From Candidatus Multivoradales bacterium (GTDB lineage: Bacteria; Acidobacteriota; Thermoanaerobaculia; Multivoradales; J023): 64,000 nucleotides of DNA. Below, piece by piece: positions 40,730-47,862 of this stretch. The translations under genes and the position numbers were made by a program. The notes under the pieces are model-generated. The model saw nothing but the letters and a program-made list of their open reading frames with translations, did not search any database and was not told where the DNA came from. How positions within the stretch are numbered: position 1 is the first letter of the stretch; each line of letters starts with the position of its first letter. The DNA lies in contig CBDFLE010000006.1 in assembly GCA_965248925.1 (NCBI GenBank), positions 1,280,001-1,344,000 of the forward strand, written 5' to 3'.

Positions 40730-42361
40730 ATGCGTGGACAGATGATGGACCGACCGCTGTTGATCTCGTCGCTGATCGAGCACGCGGCGCTCTACCACCG
40801 CGAGATCGAGGTGGTGTCGCGGACTGTCGAGGGGCCGATCCACCGCTACACCTATCTGCAGGTACAAAAGCGCTCGAAGCAGCTGGCCAACGCCCTGGCC
40901 GGCCTCGGTATCGAACTCGGCGATCGGGTGGCAACGGTGGCCTGGAACGGCTTTCGCCACGTCGAACTCTATTTCGCCATCTCCGGCATGGGCGCGGTCT
41001 GCCACACCATCAACCCGCGGCTGCACCCCGACCAGCTGACGTACATCGTCAACCATGCCGAAGACAAAGTCATTTTCCTCGACCTGACTTTCGTCCCGCT
41101 ACTCGAAGCGGTGGCCGCTCAACTACCCACCGTAACCACCTACGTGGTGATGACCGATCGGCAGCACATGCCCGACACCTCACTGCCGGGTGCGCTGTGC
41201 TACGAAGATCTGCTGTCCGCCGCCAGCACCGATTTCGACTGGCCGCAATTCGACGAGAGCACCGCTTCCAGCTTGTGCTACACCTCCGGCACCACCGGCA
41301 ATCCCAAGGGAGTGCTCTACAGCCACCGCTCGACCGTGCTGCATTCGCTGGCGGCCTGCCAAGTAGACACCCTGGGCATCTCCTCGCAGGATGTCATCCT
41401 GCCCGTAGTACCGATGTTTCACGTCAATGCCTGGGGACTGCCCTACGCCTGTGCGATGTGCGGCGCCAAGATGGTGATGCCCGGCGCCCTGCTCGACGGC
41501 GCCAGCGTCTGGGAGTTACTCGACAGTGAACAAGTGACGATGACCGCCGGAGTGCCGACAGTGTGGCTGATGCTGCTCAACTACATGCGGGAGAATGACC
41601 TCGGCCTCAAAACCGTCGCTCGGGTGGTGATCGGTGGCTCGGCAGCTTCGCAATCGATGATCGAGGCTTTCCAGGACGAGTTCGGCACCCAGGTCATTCA
41701 CGCCTGGGGAATGACCGAGACCAGTCCACTGGGCACCATCGGCACTCTAAAAAGCAAGCACCGCCATTTGAGTGCTCAGGAACGGCTAGCCCTCCAGCTC
41801 AAGCAAGGTCGCGGGCTTTATGGCGTGGAGATGCGGATCGTCGATGAGGATGGCAACGAGCAACCGCGCGATGGCCAAGCCTTCGGCGAACTACAAGTAC
41901 GCGGGCCTTGGGTAGTGGGCGAATATTTTCGCCATCAGGGGAGTCCCACCCTAACCGCGGACGGCTGGTTCGCCACCGGCGATGTCTCGACCCTCGATGC
42001 GGATGGTTTCATGCAGATCACCGACCGCGCCAAGGATGTCATCAAGTCAGGGGGAGAGTGGATCTCTTCGATCGATCTGGAGAACGAGGCCGCCGCCCAT
42101 CCGAAGGTCGCCGAGGCGGCGGTCATCGGCGTTCCTCACCCCAAGTGGTCGGAACGTCCGATCCTGGTAGTGGTGCCAGTCAAGGGCGATCCACCGAGCA
42201 AGGAAGAACTGCTCGCCTTCCTCGACGGGCGGGTCGCCAAATGGTGGCTGCCGGACGACATGGTGCTGGTCGACGAACTCCCCCACACCGCCACCGGCAA
42301 GGTCTCGAAACGAACCCTGCGCCGCCAGCTGGCCGACTATCGCTTGCCCGACGCTGACTGA
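40730..42361 (+). CDS. Medium/long-chain acyl-CoA ligase (AlkK/DmdB-like)
   Basis: [46 protein letters not shown]. Confidence 0.93.
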
Positions 42362-42372
42362 GGGCAACTGCG

Positions 42373-43080
42373 ATGAGCGTGCTGGTACTGATTCGTCATG
42401 GTCAGGCATCGGCCCACACCGACGACTACGACCGCCTATCACCCCTCGGCGAAGAACAAGCTCGGATCTTGGGCCAATATTGGACCGCTCGCGGCGAACG
42501 CTTCGACCGGGTCTTGGTCGGGCCGCTTCGCCGCCAACGCCAAACTCACGCTGCGGTGCGCCAAGCTTACCAACGACAGGGCCAGAGCTGGCCGCTGCCC
42601 GAGACCTGTGATGCCCTGGCCGAACACCACGGCCCGACGGTCCTCCGCCAAGCGATCGCTAACGGCGACTTGGAGCATGAGGGCGTTGGCGCACAGAACG
42701 CCGACGGCAGCTTTAGCGAGATGCTCAAAGACCCGTCGATCTTCACCCGCTGGAGCAGGCGCTGGGCCAGCGGTGAGCAACCAACGCCGACCGAACTCGA
42801 GAGCTGGTCAGCCTTTCGCCAACGGGTACGAAGCGAGCTTAACAAGATCTTCGCCACTACTGAGCGCGGCCAACGGGTGGTGGCATTCACCTCCGGCGGA
42901 GTGGTGGCGGCAGCGGTGGGCACGGTCTTCAAGCTGCCACCGACGCCAGTGATCGAGCTCAGCTGGCGGATTCGCAACGCTTCGATCAACGAAATCCTGT
43001 TCCGCGAGCACCAGGCGATGCTCCACACCCTCAATACCGTTCCCCATCTACAGGAAGATCGGTTGCTGACCTATGTTTGA
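42373..43080 (+). CDS. Histidine phosphatase family protein
   Basis: LIRHGQAS, LRRQRQT, FTSGG. Confidence 0.9.
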   Translation: MSVLVLIRHGQASAHTDDYDRLSPLGEEQARILGQYWTARGERFDRVLVGPLRRQRQTHAAVRQAYQRQGQSWPLPETCDALAEHHGPTVLRQAIANGDLEHEGVGAQNADGSFSEMLKDPSIFTRWSRRWASGEQPTPTELESWSAFRQRVRSELNKIFATTERGQRVVAFTSGGVVAAAVGTVFKLPPTPVIELSWRIRNASINEILFREHQAMLHTLNTVPHLQEDRLLTYV

Positions 43081-43179
43081 CCCACTTCCCAAGACCTAAG
43101 TACAAGTAAAATATCTTTCATTTCGCAAATTGGAAGAAAGACCCCAACTTCCAGCTAGCCTAGAGTAGCCACTCTTCCA

Positions 43180-43261
43180 TCGGGTGCATCCGGTTCCTAG
43201 CGGGTGGTCGCTGACCACCTACACTTGCTCGCTAAACGTCTTCGGCCCTTCGCCGCCGACG
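43180..43261 (+). ncRNA. Candidate structured 5' leader, copy 1
   Basis: Three hairpins shared with copies 2 and 3, with compensatory changes. Confidence 0.5.
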
Positions 43262-43276
43262 AGAAGCGTTCAGAAG

Positions 43277-43852
43277 TTCGTGCATCGCTTCGACGATGCT
43301 TTCTTCGATGCCAAAGGCACCGCCTACACCCGCGTCCAGGTTCGTGCCCCCGCCTTTGAGAGCTTGAAGCCGGTCGAGACCCTCTGCGGCAATTTCGACG
43401 TCACCGTTACCTTGGACGGCGAACAACCGATCACCAAGATGCAGATCCTCCGCGATAGCACCGAGGGTGGCCGTTTCTTCTCTCCCATCTCAGTGATCGT
43501 CAAGCTCAACTTTGTCGCGGCCGATGGCAGCAAGCACGAGCCGCTGGTGATCAGCCGCCGCTTGGATTTCAAAGCGATGGACAACGGCCGTTGGACCGAG
43601 AGCCCGGCGAAGCACAACCTAGTGGCGAAGAGCTTCCTCTTGGTCGACACCAATGCCGATGGTGATCCCGATACCTACTTGCCTGGCACCTCCAATTTCA
43701 TCGCTAGCGCTGGCGAGCCCGTAGCTCCCGGTCAGAAGGCACAGTCGATCATCCAACAGCCGAGTGATTGTCACTGTGAATACGCCACTTGCGGCCATCA
43801 GCACTGCATCACCGTGCCAACCGACGATTGTGGCGGCTATGTGTGTCGCTAG
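43277..43852 (+). pseudogene. Secreted CHCxxxxCGHxHC-tail protein, paralog 1 (RBS, start and ~85 codons deleted)
   Basis: Homology to 44228-45052 starts at VHRFDDA, directly after the leader motif. Confidence 0.8.
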
Positions 43853-43933
43853 TCAACGCCGATAGCTTGGTCAACTTAGGGTCGGCGGTCATCCGCTGCC
43901 AATATTGAACTGCGAGCCATCTTGAGTTCGCCC

Positions 43934-43976
43934 GGTGCCGAGCCACCTGTGGGTGGCCGGCGCCCTCTTCTTCTTT
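43934..43976 (+). terminator. Terminator hairpin after paralog 1
   Basis: GGTGCCG-a-GCCAC/GTGGC-CGGCGCC followed by a CT-rich tail. Confidence 0.65.
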
Positions 43977-44109
43977 CGATCTCTCAATAGCAGCGGTTGG
44001 CGGCGTGCCGATCCGAAAGACCAGGCCACTGGGTCCTCGAAGATGAGCATTTCGCAAGACGGAAGAAGCGTCCGGCCGATCACTGAATTAACCTCTCCCC
44101 ATCGTTGGA

Positions 44110-44192
44110 TCGGATTTATCCGGCACCTAGCGGGCGGTCGAAGGCCGCCTACCATGCGCACCGACCTGCTACCGGCTCGTAGCCGCTGGTAG
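44110..44192 (+). ncRNA. Candidate structured 5' leader, copy 2
   Basis: CGGA-N4-TCCG; CCTAG; GGCGGTC/GGCCGCC; CTACCGGCT/AGCCG..GGTAG. Confidence 0.5.
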
Positions 44193-44227
44193 AAGGTGCG
44201 CTGAACCCCGTCCTAGGGAGAACTAGA

Positions 44228-45052
44228 ATGCGTAAGTTCTTGCTCTTGACCGGCCTCGCCCTACTTCTCATCGCCCTACCTGCCGCCGCCGATTCGGTGA
44301 TCTACAGCGGTGTCGACCTCTGGACCAGCTCAAGCGACGGCTCGACACAGTCAAGCTTCGCCGAAGAAGCGATTCCGGCCAACTTCTTCTGCAGCGGCTC
44401 GGAGCCGTTCACCGGTGTTATCAAATTCCGCGGCCAGCCGTTGGCAACCGAGCCCGCCGGACTGCTGGGCAAAGTCGACACCATCGTGCATCGCCTCGAC
44501 GATGCATATTTCGGCGCCAAAGGCATCGCGGATACCCGTATTCAGGTGCGCGCCCTGGCCTTCGAGAGCCTTGAGGCAATTGATACCACCTGTGGCAAGT
44601 TCAACGTCACCGTGGTGCTCGATGGTGAGCAGCCGATCACCAAGATGCGGATCTTGCGTGACAACGAGAAAGGCGGCGCCTTCTTCTCGCCGATCTCGGT
44701 GCAGGTCAGCATGAATTTCAGCCACGCTAGCGGTCGCCTGCACGAGCCACTGTCCATCAGCCGCCGGCTGGACTTCGCGCCAATGGGCAACGGTCGCTGG
44801 ACTAGCGAAGCGTTCGAGGGCCAGGTCACCGCCAAGGGCTTCGTGCTGGTCGACACCAACGCCGACGGCCAGCCCGACACCTACCTGCCTGGTACTTCGA
44901 ACTTCAATGCCCATGCTGGTTCGGTCGACATCGACGGCTTAGGCCAGAAGGCGATCATCGCGCCGGTCGACTGCCACTGCGAGTTCGAGTCGTGCGGGCA
45001 TCGCCACTGCATCGCCAATTGCGGCGGTGGTACCCAATACGCGTGTCCGTAA
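44228..45052 (+). CDS. Secreted CHCxxxxCGHxHC-tail protein, paralog 2 (intact)
   Basis: RBS GGAG; signal peptide; beta-rich body; VDTNADG.PDTYLPGTSNF; tail DCHCEFESCGHRHCIANC...ACP. Confidence 0.9.
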   Translation: MRKFLLLTGLALLLIALPAAADSVIYSGVDLWTSSSDGSTQSSFAEEAIPANFFCSGSEPFTGVIKFRGQPLATEPAGLLGKVDTIVHRLDDAYFGAKGIADTRIQVRALAFESLEAIDTTCGKFNVTVVLDGEQPITKMRILRDNEKGGAFFSPISVQVSMNFSHASGRLHEPLSISRRLDFAPMGNGRWTSEAFEGQVTAKGFVLVDTNADGQPDTYLPGTSNFNAHAGSVDIDGLGQKAIIAPVDCHCEFESCGHRHCIANCGGGTQYACP

Positions 45053-45108
45053 GCAATACCCGCAATTCCGGCACTTGGTCACTTGACCGCTAATGCCGGT
45101 TCGGCAAG

Positions 45109-45145
45109 GGCGCCGCACCACCCCCCTTCGGTGGCCGGTGTCTTT
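45109..45145 (+). terminator. Terminator hairpin after paralog 2
   Basis: GGCGCCG..CCAC/GTGG.CGGTGTC followed by TTT. Confidence 0.55.
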
Positions 45146-45292
45146 GACGTCTGATCTCATGGTGGCAACAGCTCGACGTGGCCCGCGACGGGTTGGAGTG
45201 ATTCCGCGCTGTCCGAACCTTGGACAATTCGCAAGATGAAAAAAGCGCCCGCCTGGAATTCGGATTAACGTTCTCTCACGTTTATCGGTTTG

Positions 45293-45373
45293 TCGGATGT
45301 TTCCGGTTCCTAGTTGGCGGCCAGCAGCCGCCTACCTCGCTCGTCTCGTGCTTTCGACCTTCTGTCGTCGGCG
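45293..45373 (+). ncRNA. Candidate structured 5' leader, copy 3
   Basis: CGGA-N4-TCCG; CCTAG; GGCGGC/GCCGCC; CGAC/GTCG. Confidence 0.5.
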
Positions 45374-45412
45374 TGCAGCGTGCAAAACCCTGTTCGCAGG
45401 GAGAATCTCGAA

Positions 45413-45936
45413 ATGCGTAAGTTTTTGCTCTTGACCGGCCTCGCTGTGCTGCTTCTTGCCCTGCCGGCCGTCGCCGACTCGGTGATCTATAGCGGTATCG
45501 ATCTGTGGAAGACCATGGAGATCCTCCGCGATAGCGCCGAGGGTGCCGCTTCTTCTCGCCCATCTCGGTCATCATCAAGCTCAGTTTCACCGCCTCTGAT
45601 GGCGGCAGCCATGAGCCCCTGGTGATCAGCCGGCGTTTGGATTTCAAAGCGATGGACGACGGCAGTTGGACCGAGAACCCGGGCAAAAGCCGCATCGTAG
45701 CCAAGAGCTTCGTCGTGGTCGAAACCGACGCCGACGGTGAGCCCGACACCTACCTGCCTGGCACCTCGAACTTCAACCCCTCCTCCTCAGCACCCGCGGC
45801 GCCAGGTCAGAAGTTGGCCGACACCAACGGTTGTCACTGTGACTACGAGACCTGCGGTCATGTGCACTGCATCGGCGTGCCAATCGACGACGACTGTGGT
45901 GATACCTCCTTCGGCAACGTGCAGATTTGCCAGTAG
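45413..45936 (+). pseudogene. Secreted CHCxxxxCGHxHC-tail protein, paralog 3 (internal deletion + frameshift)
   Basis: MRKFLLLTGLA...SGIDLW jumps to TMEILRD (~100 codons missing); 1-nt shift near 45547; tail GCHCDYETCGHVHCI. Confidence 0.85.
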
Positions 45937-46001
45937 TCCTGATCCTGTCGGATCGGCGATCCTGAGTCGACGGTGAAGGGTATGCCGATTCGAGTTTGTT
46001 C

Positions 46002-46042
46002 GGCGCCGCGCCACTCTTGGGTGGCCGGCGCCCTCTCTATTT
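46002..46042. terminator. Terminator hairpin after paralog 3 (convergent with the degV-like gene)
   Basis: GGCGCCG-c-GCCAC/GTGGC-CGGCGCC. Confidence 0.65.
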
Positions 46043-46068
46043 GGTCTGTTGGCAGTATCTGTAGCCGA

Positions 46069-47862
46069 CTAGCGTAGTGGCGCCAGCATTTCGACTTCGT
46101 CTTCGAGCGGCTGAAACAGCACCGCACCGACCGCCCCCGGCCCAACATGGGCGCCTACCACCGGCCCCATCTCGCCAACGATCAGCTCTTGCACCTTGAA
46201 TTGCGCTTCGATGTGCTCGCGCAGCAGATCCCCCCAGACCGGGGCGGCTGCGTGGGCAACACCGACGATGGTGGGTAGGTCGGGGTCGGTGGCCTCAATC
46301 AATCGTTGCATCATGCGCTCGATAGCCGCCCGATTGCCACGACCACGATCCACCGCCACGATCTCTCCACCGACCACTCCCAGCACCGGCTTGATGCCGA
46401 GCAGCTTGCCGACCAACGCCCGCGCTCTACCAATGCGGCCACCACGAACCAGGTATTCCAATGTGTCGACCACGAATAACGTAGGCATGCGTTCGACCAT
46501 GCCGCGGAGGCGCTCGGCGACTTCGACGGCCGACAATCCTCGCTCTACCATGCGCGCCGCGAACAGGCTTTGCAAACCCAAGCCGATAGTGACTTGAGCA
46601 CTGTCCACCGTTTGGATTTGTAGCCGTTGAGAGGGCGTAGAAGCAACGGGCAACATACCTTTGGCAGCCATCCAAGAATGTCTGAAGGTCTCCGACAACT
46701 TGCTCGAGATATGCACCGACACCACTTCCTTCTCGCCGGTCAGCTGAGCATAGAGGGCACTGAACTCCTGCGGTGATGGCGGCGTGGTGAAAGGGTGATC
46801 GCCGCTACTTTGCAGCAGCTCATAGAACTCGCTGTTACTCAGGTCGATACCGTCGAGAAATACCTTGTCACCAAAGGTCACGGTCAGTGGCACGACGTGA
46901 ATCCGGTGTGCCGCGGCAAGCTCTTTGGGCAGGTCGGCGGTCGAATCGGTGACCACCGCTACTGTCGGCTCAGGGTCGGACAACAGCAGCAAGCCGCTAC
47001 TTTCGAGGCGACGCAAGGCAGCGATCAGCCGGCTATCAGTCTCGGTCAACGCGTCGAGCAACTCACCGAGGGCGGAAAGGGAATGCAGCGCCACCAAGAT
47101 CTCCATCTCCGCCGGCTCGAGCTGACGCTCGAGCACGTTGGCGCCAGCTTGGGGACATACCCAGCTGCGCAGATCAGGGAAATCTGCCAAGCAATCCTCG
47201 ACTGCCCGCGCCAGCAGTTCGTCGCTGCCCAGATGCAGGTTGCGACGAATTCGGGTGGGGTCTGGGAACACCCGGAAGGGGCCTTCGCCATGCCGCGCCA
47301 GGCGGCAGAAAGCCTTGAGCCCCGCCGCGCGACGGGTACGGGCCGCCACCGGCTCGCCGGCCTGCAACGCGATCGAGCCATAGCGGGTCTGCAACTGACC
47401 GGTGAAGCGAGTTTCCACCAATGCTGGAATCAGCTCGAAGAAGGGCTTGCGGCCCAGATCACCAACCAACGAATTGGCATGCAGGTTGGGCTCGACGCCC
47501 AGTTCTCGGCCCAACATCAACAGTCGCAGGCGGGCTAGCAGATCGCCTTCGCCCAGCTCTGCCCGGCTGACGAACAAGACCTCGTCCGGCAGCTGGCTCG
47601 CCTCGCGCTGGCTGCGCCCAACCGCCAAGATCGGCGTTGGCGTCGCCCGCGCCAGTTCGAGCAGCTCGGCACCTTCACTGGCATCGAGCAACAGCTCGCT
47701 GGCCATCACCACCATCCACGGCTCAAGGGCGGCGGCGAAACGCACCGCGTCTGCGGCACGGCCTACCGGCACAACTTCGTAACCGGCTTCGGTCAGGCCG
47801 ACGCTCAACGCCCGCCGGCTCTCGGCTTGCGGGTCGACAATCATGACTACGGGTCGCGACAT
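46069..47862 (-). CDS. Pseudo-receiver + DUF4388-like + DegV (FakB-type fatty-acid binding) fusion
   Basis: Start MSRPVVMIVD; VGDLGRKPFFELI (DUF4388-like); VVTDSTADLP, HISSKLS, GGRIG, HVGPG (DegV). Confidence 0.88.
   Translation of the reverse strand: MSRPVVMIVDPQAESRRALSVGLTEAGYEVVPVGRAADAVRFAAALEPWMVVMASELLLDASEGAELLELARATPTPILAVGRSQREASQLPDEVLFVSRAELGEGDLLARLRLLMLGRELGVEPNLHANSLVGDLGRKPFFELIPALVETRFTGQLQTRYGSIALQAGEPVAARTRRAAGLKAFCRLARHGEGPFRVFPDPTRIRRNLHLGSDELLARAVEDCLADFPDLRSWVCPQAGANVLERQLEPAEMEILVALHSLSALGELLDALTETDSRLIAALRRLESSGLLLLSDPEPTVAVVTDSTADLPKELAAAHRIHVVPLTVTFGDKVFLDGIDLSNSEFYELLQSSGDHPFTTPPSPQEFSALYAQLTGEKEVVSVHISSKLSETFRHSWMAAKGMLPVASTPSQRLQIQTVDSAQVTIGLGLQSLFAARMVERGLSAVEVAERLRGMVERMPTLFVVDTLEYLVRGGRIGRARALVGKLLGIKPVLGVVGGEIVAVDRGRGNRAAIERMMQRLIEATDPDLPTIVGVAHAAAPVWGDLLREHIEAQFKVQELIVGEMGPVVGAHVGPGAVGAVLFQPLEDEVEMLAPLR

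Follow-up and report, generated by a model that had tools for sequence, protein, structure and literature searches.

What do the three related genes at positions 43120-46045 on the forward strand of this Candidatus Multivoradales contig encode, and what is the purpose of the Cys- and His-rich ending that their products share? In the 64,000-nucleotide (nt) stretch analyzed here (the window), a first-pass annotation had proposed that a conserved carrier body delivers a metal-binding or disulfide-knotted, possibly cleaved, peptide diversified by duplication. Our analysis led to a different answer, which we regard as reasonably probable: the product would be a barrel exported through the Sec pathway, with a likely calcium-binding loop and a closing hairpin, stapled by disulfides, in which a pair or triad of His binds a metal, this binding being something that we infer. 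The argument is built on the second gene, copy 2, the parts of which are as follows.

44228..45052, forward strand: copy 2, intact gene of 274 amino acids (aa), with signal peptide, predicted β-barrel body and Cys/His hairpin
44228..44290, forward strand: Sec-type signal peptide, MRKFLLLTGLALLLIALPAAA/DS, the AAA/DS cleavage site being placed by eye
44852..44905, forward strand: loop DTNADGQPDTYLPGTSNF, residues 209-226, with a DxDxDG motif like that of thrombospondin type 3 (TSP3) repeats, putatively calcium-binding
44966..45016, forward strand: predicted last barrel β-hairpin, VDCHCEFESCGHRHCIA, residues 247-263, with H250, H258, H260, C249, C251, C256 and C261
45017..45049, forward strand: variable C-terminal extension NCGGGTQYACP, with the Cys pair C265 and C273 and low model confidence

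The structure of copy 2 was predicted with AlphaFold2 from a 50-sequence alignment, and the model was all-β, with a mean predicted local distance difference test (pLDDT) of 89.1 and a predicted template modeling score (pTM) of 0.85. The model agrees with the β-rich body described from the sequence. A Foldseek comparison with the PDB gave no match at an expect value (E) ≤1e-3. When the model was submitted to an exhaustive search with VIA-align against 48,161 chains, NspA (Z 9.4), DynF (9.3), OmpA (9.2), PagL (8.7), OprF (8.0), OmpW (7.9) and YceI-like proteins (5.0-6.0) were found; the alignment with DynF covered 148 residues, with 14% identity and a root-mean-square deviation of 4.0. The barrel alignments extended through the Cys/His hairpin, to model residue 264. 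On the basis of the model, we claim a closed β-barrel architecture, not homology to the matched barrels.

The mature protein would result from export via Sec and removal of the signal peptide, in which inspection of the sequence revealed neither a twin-arginine motif nor a lipobox Cys. It would then fold as a soluble closed β-barrel, stabilized by a likely C55-C122 disulfide and by the TSP3-like, putatively calcium-binding loop DTNADGQPDTYLPGTSNF. This loop reads D209-T-N-A-D213-G-Q-P-D217, as compared with the TSP3-type DxDxDGxxDxxD, and D209, D213 and D217 are invariant or nearly so; in the 50-sequence alignment, D209, T210, D213, P221 and F226 were invariant. The Pfam TSP_3 model did not match copy 2, FG-GAP_3 matched weakly in 3 of the 50 family members, and true TSP3 repeats flank or follow the barrel domain in multi-domain relatives.

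The Cys/His ending was modeled as an integral part of this barrel. In copy 2, strands 247-252 and 258-263 (VDCHCE and HRHCIA) form a β-hairpin with a block pLDDT of 93; the linker at residues 231-246 has lower confidence (blocks of 64 and 71), and pLDDT falls below 50 at residues 267-270. A second AlphaFold model was obtained for P0088, a Cys-free homologue with the tail WDHQAPTHTH, and reached a pLDDT of 91, with 96 for the block that holds the equivalent hairpin (231-236 and 239-245). According to the strand register, H234, H239 and H241 of P0088, the equivalents of H250, H258 and H260, share one face of the hairpin, and the opposite face is made of D, Q, T and S in P0088 and of C, C, R and C in copy 2.

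The same residues stand out in the alignments. Among 50 homologues, H250 and H260 were invariant, a third His was frequent, and C249 and C261 were at least 90% conserved; with 67 sequences of greater diversity, conservation of H234 and H241 (P0088 numbering) was still 90% or more. The core of the tail is therefore as conserved as the body, contrary to the idea of a conserved body with a variable tail, and only the last 8-20 residues vary freely, both in length and in sequence. As had been noted, six Cys and three His are common to the tails of all three copies (C249, C251, C256, C261, C265, C273, H250, H258 and H260 in copy 2), the three tails are present letter for letter, and the CxxCH heme-attachment motif typical of c-type cytochromes was absent upon inspection of all three copies. 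The CHC...CxHxHC pattern recurs in distant members with loops of 4 to about 25 residues, and the CHCxxxxCGHxHC of the window is no local invention; most near relatives have a shorter CH...C.HC form. When 246 tails were classified, 42 were CHC..CxHxHC, 18 CHC..HC, 136 CH..HC, 4 HC..CxHxH, 5 H..CxH..C, 24 Cys-free H..HxH, 8 H..H, and 9 fell in no class, so that at least the His pair was kept in 237. In 317 tails, the two Cys flanking the His pair were both present in 216 and both absent in 84, with 17 discordant cases, and such paired gain and loss is as expected of a disulfide pair or of joint ligands. The proposal that the tail binds metal or forms disulfides fits this conservation pattern and is kept here as a suggestion drawn from sequence.

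These data can be assembled into a working model in which the Cys/His "tail" would be the last two strands of the barrel, not its cargo. H250 would lie opposite H260 across the hairpin, with H258 on the same face, and this face most likely points into the barrel. Family-wide, the residue on the His face two positions past the last His is mostly V, T, P or I, and from such residues beside the His we infer that the His face is directed to the lumen and that the Cys face is exposed and stapled. On this other face, C249-C261 would form a cross-strand disulfide and C251-C256 a loop-closing one; C265-C273 is a further predicted pair. An HxH pair plus a His on the adjacent antiparallel strand is a classic metal-binding geometry; carbonic anhydrase II builds its three-His site in this manner, with His94, His96 and His119. 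The likeness of H250 plus H258-x-H260 to that enzyme comes from the strand register, and the folds are unrelated. The two- or three-His site of copy 2 would thus most likely bind a divalent metal, zinc or copper being the obvious candidates, and the invariant M140 and nearby acidic positions could complete it. Periplasmic copper binders that use His and Met are also known, such as CusF and PCuAC; copy 2 has in common with them the invariant Met, again with unrelated folds. The site would serve binding of, or catalysis on, a small ligand inside the barrel; the metal itself may be structural, captured for the cell, or catalytic on the barrel ligand.

Several observations weigh against this explanation. 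The Z values of 8-9.4 are only slightly above the best Z of 7-8 that is typical for models without a clear relative, and integral outer-membrane barrels are among the top structural matches. The 9 tails of 246 that lack the His pair are exceptions, some of which look frameshifted. The tail counts came from custom regular expressions that searched the last 110 residues for the His pair with the highest score, a procedure that favors the counted pattern, and before the 246 tails were counted, 91 sequences had been dropped because the calcium-loop pattern missed them and 32 because of their length. Some classes have an odd number of Cys, as in CH..C.HCVG with five Cys in the protein, which implies that not all Cys are in disulfides and that some may be metal ligands or free thiols. 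Finally, the metal, the disulfides and any ligand are deduced, and the side that faces the lumen is argued from strand register and residue composition.

Of the other explanations, two concern what kind of object the protein is. A carrier or leader body with a cleaved metal-binding or disulfide-knotted Cys/His peptide, diversified by duplication, would account for the variability of the 8-20 residues past the core motif, with their extra Cys pair, for the Lys that is common upstream of the motif when judged by eye, and for the lower model confidence of the linker (64 and 71), but we consider it very unlikely. Both models show the motif, with confidence, as a hairpin of the barrel, and barrel alignments run through it to residue 264; the GQK that was taken as a junction is not conserved in homologues, where by eye a Lys is common; and the same hairpin is found inside multi-domain proteins with further domains after it. 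In addition, a folded, Sec-exported leader of 230 residues is unlike known precursors of ribosomal peptides, and no conserved maturase, protease or transporter gene was found as neighbor. The idea, attractive but unsupported, is corrected here because the hairpin is integrated in the fold, its core is conserved, the signal peptide is of the Sec type, and no processing genes lie nearby. The class of ribosomal modified-peptide precursors was also compared and rejected, as 82 loci offered no conserved modifying-enzyme, protease or exporter neighbors and the core is modeled as part of the barrel fold. Even less credible is a small integral outer-membrane β-barrel of the OmpA/OmpX/NspA/OmpW kind, in spite of the top positions of NspA (1p4t), OmpA, PagL, OprF and OmpW, which share with copy 2 a closed antiparallel barrel of about 8 strands (Z 7.9-9.4), and of a weak NCBIfam match (E 0.053) with a family of outer-membrane barrels, restricted to the signal peptide (residues 5-42). 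Outer-membrane barrels carry a C-terminal insertion signal that ends in an aromatic residue, and their membrane-spanning strands have about 10 residues throughout. Copy 2 lacks both features: 8 of the 16 strands in its model are only 3-5 residues long and many have 3-7, and its C-terminus is not aromatic, the last residue being P, R and Q in the three copies and C, G, Q, E or Y in homologues. Because of the short strands, the conserved Cys pairs, the acidic, calcium-type DxDxDG loop, the non-aromatic C-termini, and the internal, repeated occurrence of the domain in giant soluble surface proteins (up to 3118 aa), we read the barrel as soluble rather than membrane-embedded.

The remaining two accept the fold and dispute its function. 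The same barrel and hairpin could work with no metal, as a calycin-like binder of a small, perhaps hydrophobic, molecule or as an enzyme, with His that are catalytic or contact the ligand and with all Cys in structural disulfides; this we hold to be unlikely, yet the strongest of the four competing explanations. The best soluble structural match, DynF (Z 9.3; PDB 6ubl, from the dynemicin pathway of Micromonospora chersina), is described in PMC8725005 as an eight-stranded barrel with palmitic acid bound inside. Like copy 2, it is a closed antiparallel β-barrel, but it is without the TSP3-like loop, the Cys/His hairpin and the signal peptide context, and has no sequence-level relation to copy 2, which is about 60 residues longer and has extra N-terminal strands. 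The YceI-like or calycin barrels (1wub, 1y0g and 3q34; Z 5.0-6.0) are soluble, often periplasmic, eight-stranded, and hold a small molecule in the lumen, the YceI-like polyisoprenoid binders matching with Z 5.4-6.0; they lack the His hairpin, and their Z is lower than that of DynF. Copy 2 also has many invariant polar residues on barrel strands in the 50 sequences (D30, R89, D91, R104, Q106, T138 and M140), as a ligand-binding barrel might. Against a metal-free function stand the HxH and cross-strand His geometry, a Cys-free class that retains exactly H...HxH, and the absence of a sequence-level link to the YceI or lipocalin families, since neither Pfam family matched copy 2 (E ≤1) or appeared among the 9 weak families found with 50 members. 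We give still less weight to a module with a structural or adhesive role at the cell surface or in the matrix, in which stand-alone copies would be secreted building blocks, and calcium, disulfides and perhaps a structural zinc would only provide stability. The domain is indeed repeated in giant proteins with TSP3, Cys-rich repeats, and IPTL-CTERM or type IX secretion system (T9SS)-type ends, and the genes occur in multi-copy tandem arrays; however, the invariant polar constellation and the invariant His pair exceed the usual needs of stability, and the NCBIfam scan found no anchor signal in the window's copies.

The exported barrel with a metal-binding hairpin is accordingly the explanation that we carry forward. 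A broader proposal is more tentative: the proteins could constitute an undescribed class of extracytoplasmic metallo-β-barrel with a luminal His pair or triad and a disulfide-stapled hairpin, expanded in tandem in Thermoanaerobaculia, in part under a dedicated promoter box and regulator, serving to capture metal or acting as a novel metalloenzyme outside the cell, and recruited as a module for the repeats of giant proteins. The family is of interest because Acidobacteriota are abundant in soils and poorly understood. With about 1000 representatives of 50%-identity clusters, genomes that hold up to two dozen copies, and nothing equivalent in Pfam, NCBIfam or the PDB, it leaves a considerable gap in what is known of the proteins that they secrete. 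The near-universal His signature on a well-predicted hairpin offers a concrete, testable metal hypothesis, and the family-specific box described below is a handle on the regulator and the conditions of expression.

The family had been called unrecognized, and this was upheld. Copy 2 matched no Pfam family at E ≤1, and NCBIfam returned only the outer-membrane barrel match in the signal peptide, a chance one of 12.7 bits; a sequence profile from 50 homologues found nothing in the PDB below E 0.9, with one chance match at E 0.92. A word-indexed search gave 340 proteins at E ≤0.01, and all those with names were "hypothetical protein" entries of Thermoanaerobaculia, Holophagales and other Acidobacteriota. 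Among the representatives of 50%-identity clusters, there were 954 at E ≤1e-3, 395 at ≤1e-10 and 108 at ≤1e-30. The first-pass annotation had asked whether the body recurs with interchangeable tails; the body does recur, with a conserved tail core and free variation confined to the last 8-20 residues. In contigs of species-representative genomes, 299 places were confirmed, mostly in metagenome-assembled genomes (MAGs) of Thermoanaerobaculia and Holophagales, with several per MAG. The family was present in 8 of 31 related genomes, that of the window included, with 1-21 matches each when all candidates were scored; a phylum-wide count of 6 in 301 genomes, for which 8 candidates per genome were scored, is probably an underestimate, and the former count is preferred. 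Five MAGs reached via their loci had 3-25 family matches each. As far as our searches reach, the family, the Cys-stapled His hairpin and the dedicated promoter box are undescribed, and the fold class is familiar; a literature search on secreted β-barrels of Thermoanaerobaculia, histidine, paralogs and cross-strand histidine found nothing relevant. By protein-language-model features, the nearest named clusters were the uncharacterized actinobacterial Pfam families DUF6073 and DUF6004 (0.84 and 0.81, below the line of 0.9), and one giant homologue had a sub-threshold DUF6073 match (21.7 bits vs. a cut-off of 25). Their hidden Markov models (PF19550 and PF19467) had no match in the window's genome at E ≤1 and none on copy 2, and DUF6073, DUF6004 and DUF7901 were named nowhere in the literature search.

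In multi-domain relatives, the barrel domain occupies internal positions and can recur up to six times; these proteins reach 3118 aa and also have TSP3 repeats, Cys-rich repeats, IPTL-CTERM or T9SS-type ends, or a subtilase. In the giant ones, the acidic loop is followed by a basic residue and a retained H...H, and further domains come after the hairpin. Five of these giants (P0247, P0249, P0252, P0204 and P0250; 1687-3118 aa) have 4-6 barrel-domain stretches each, along with TSP3 repeats, subtilase, DUF7901, DUF4215, Cys-rich repeats or a galactose-binding-like domain. A distant subfamily (P0219, P0223, P0227, P0246, P0248, P0264 and P0242) was also observed, in which a Cys-framed H..HxH hairpin precedes a conserved helical C-terminal extension (...LEARGLLxISAEELxEEI...) that matched no Pfam family.

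Returning to the window, the three tandem paralogous units on the forward strand that had been reported were confirmed by their open reading frames (ORFs) and by DNA alignment, in which their upstream regions could also be aligned. They lie head to tail and are built alike: each begins with an upstream box rich in A, followed by a leader that contains a GC-rich hairpin, the coding region and a hairpin terminator. The elements that surround copy 2 are listed below.

43122-43139, forward strand: promoter-like box of unit 1, TTCGCAAATTGGAAGAAA, with a -10-like TAGCCT at 43156-43161 and a spacer shorter by 4 nt than those of units 2 and 3
43202..43220, forward strand: leader hairpin of unit 1, GGGTGGTC..GACCACC, with a 7-pair stem
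43265..43852, forward strand: copy 1, pseudogene truncated at its 5' end, with homology to copy 2 residues 82-267 and the tail SDCHCEYATCGHQHCITVPTDDCGGYVCR
43951-43965, forward strand: terminator-like hairpin after copy 1, GGGTGGCCGGCGCCC, with a T-run, the element extending to 43975
44051-44068, forward strand: promoter-like box of unit 2, TTCGCAAGACGGAAGAAG, with a 20-nt spacer and a -10-like TAACCT at 44089-44094
44132..44150, forward strand: leader hairpin of unit 2, GGGCGGT..GCCGCCT, in the presumed 5' untranslated region
45110..45150, forward strand: segment downstream of copy 2, alignable to the terminator hairpins of the other two units, with no call in the terminator scan
45228-45245, forward strand: promoter-like box of unit 3, TTCGCAAGATGAAAAAAG, with a 20-nt spacer and a -10-like TAACGT at 45266-45271
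45315..45333, forward strand: leader hairpin of unit 3, TGGCGGC..GCCGCCT
45413..45936, forward strand: copy 3, a pseudogene with the tail NGCHCDYETCGHVHCIGVPIDDDCGDTSFGNVQICQ
46019-46033, forward strand: terminator-like hairpin after copy 3, GGGTGGCCGGCGCCC, with a T-rich tail, the element extending to 46043

An upstream motif in each unit was therefore found as described, and so were the terminators after copies 1 and 3; for copy 2, this part of the description is reduced to the aligned stretch. Each unit would thus have its own promoter-like box, leader hairpin and terminator. That only copy 2 is intact also held. Copy 1 matched it with an E of 3.1e-73 and 63% identity, and had lost about 280 nt that hold the ribosome-binding site, the start codon, the signal peptide (a loss already pointed out) and about 82 first codons. 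Its ORF was called at 43184-43852, with homology only from about 43265, and the GTG at 43184 is a fortuitous start. Copy 3 is split in two ORFs of different frames (45314-45625 and 45622-45936). It keeps the signal peptide and 13 mature residues, then about 315 nt are deleted (junction near 45514), and a 1-nt deletion near 45544 (GGTGGCCG to GGTG-CCG) shifts the frame; its C-terminal part, 45622-45936, retains the calcium-type loop and the tail. The region 43000-46100 was reproduced with 0 differences in independently assembled contigs from four public runs, all of a single sample that may be the one this DNA came from, so neither the deletions nor the frameshift are specific to the present assembly.

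The aa identity was 63% between copies 1 and 2 (190 codons), 66% between 1 and 3 (97 codons) and 49% between 2 and 3 (96 codons), with a synonymous divergence (dS) of 0.7-1.6 and a nonsynonymous to synonymous ratio (dN/dS) of 0.20-0.34 among the three copies. From these values, the copies are old duplicates and not a recent triplication, so the duplication is ancient and the two inactivations comparatively recent. The locus would accordingly represent three old paralogues in tandem, of which one is functional and the others have decayed, in a family found mainly in Thermoanaerobaculia. A similar picture was observed elsewhere: 16 of 77 loci from other genomes hold 2-6 family stretches on one strand, with five whole copies in L076 and six stretches in L033, some of them split pieces of apparently frameshifted copies. 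The window's own 8-Mb genome has 11 family loci, 6 intact and 5 broken, the latter being copies 1 and 3, the frameshifted gene C6:1945415, and the C-terminal fragments C6:423813 and C5:1173435. Judged from these sequences, the genes form a birth-and-death multigene family, of which the triplet of the window is a typical array. The broken gene on C6 (1945380-1946200) is frameshifted near residue 55, and the two fragments span C6:423813-424136 and C5:1173435-1173749.

The upstream box was searched for in the same genome with the loose pattern YYCGCAA-R-W-N1-4-RAARAA, which gave 14 matches, whereas the reversed sequence gave 4 and block-shuffled sequence 0-5; 7 of the 14 lie 120-185 nt upstream of family genes or fragments. 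Across genomes, the box takes the form GCAA-N4-7-RARAAR, followed after 19-22 nt by a -10-like YAnnnT, 80-185 nt before the start codon. It precedes 16 of 104 distinct family genes vs. 0 of 526 other ORFs in the same loci, with 0 matches in the reversed or reverse-complement controls. Besides the three units of the window, it was borne by L002, L004, L006, L020, L026, L042, L051, L053, L071, L077, L080 and L101, and in the same-family relative G310, it lies 149 nt upstream of one paralogue. We read the box as a candidate promoter at which a dedicated sigma factor or activator would bind. Readings as a sigma-54, extracytoplasmic function (ECF)-type or sigma-70 promoter were tried by eye, and none was convincing; a sigma-70 scan called no promoter on the forward strand of the region. 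The shorter spacer of unit 1 fits a decayed copy. Separately, the C5 fragment (C5:1173435) retains a box 121 nt upstream, and a perfect box, TTCGCAAGATCGAAGAAG, was observed at C6:1967136 with no family ORF within 1.6 kb downstream; it may be what remains of a deleted copy, or else an orphan promoter.

The 7-pair GC-rich leader hairpin is common to the three units and to the paralogue L002, and 4 of its pairs are changed on both sides; with four related sequences, this conserved pairing amounts to weak evidence for a functional structure. A search of Rfam at E ≤1 gave 0 matches in 42000-47000 of the window, and when 23 homologous loci were scanned at the gathering threshold, none of their family genes had a known riboswitch immediately before it. 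Cobalamin riboswitches were seen in L024 (9312-9558, forward strand) and L039 (2598-2826, reverse strand) before genes for TonB-dependent receptors, 2-3 kb from family genes, and in L024 a periplasmic-binding-protein gene follows the receptor gene; this proximity is probably a coincidence, because such receptors occur in only 2 of 82 loci.

To analyze the neighborhood, all ORFs of at least 110 aa in those 82 loci were clustered. The commonest neighbor outside the family was an alpha/beta-hydrolase-like protein, in 13 of the 82, which reflects synteny among related MAGs, and no conserved maturase, protease, exporter or transporter gene was found; the family gene is a stand-alone gene. In the window, it is flanked by acyl-CoA synthetase-like, histidine-phosphatase-like and receiver-DegV-like genes, named by eye. 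This DNA is GC-rich, and long antisense "shadow" ORFs run across the family genes, as in 44351-44914 and 45282-45749, both on the reverse strand, and in many other loci; they form clusters that resemble a separate family (184 members in 76 loci) and led a gene caller based on the longest ORF astray.

Some minor observations were made in other loci. In L016, an Acido-Lenti-1 RNA (Rfam RF01687, 55 bits) lies at 1424-1469, about 4.5 kb upstream of a family gene. In another subfamily (L013, L015, L016 and L022), a conserved leader, TTAGGAGATCCGAAAT...CG(A/C)xCTCC, is located about 40-70 nt before the start, just 5' of the real Shine-Dalgarno sequence; its decoy GGAG and its CTCC could base-pair together or to the ribosome-binding site, and from its sequence, it looks like a translational control element. 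The motif GCCCGCGCTCCGCC was observed about 70-100 nt before the start in the leaders of L023, L029, L032, L033, L036, L041, L043, L044 and L048. Counted as CGCTCCGCC, it occurs in 15 of 107 family upstream regions, and a GGAGCG-like complementary sequence often comes after it.

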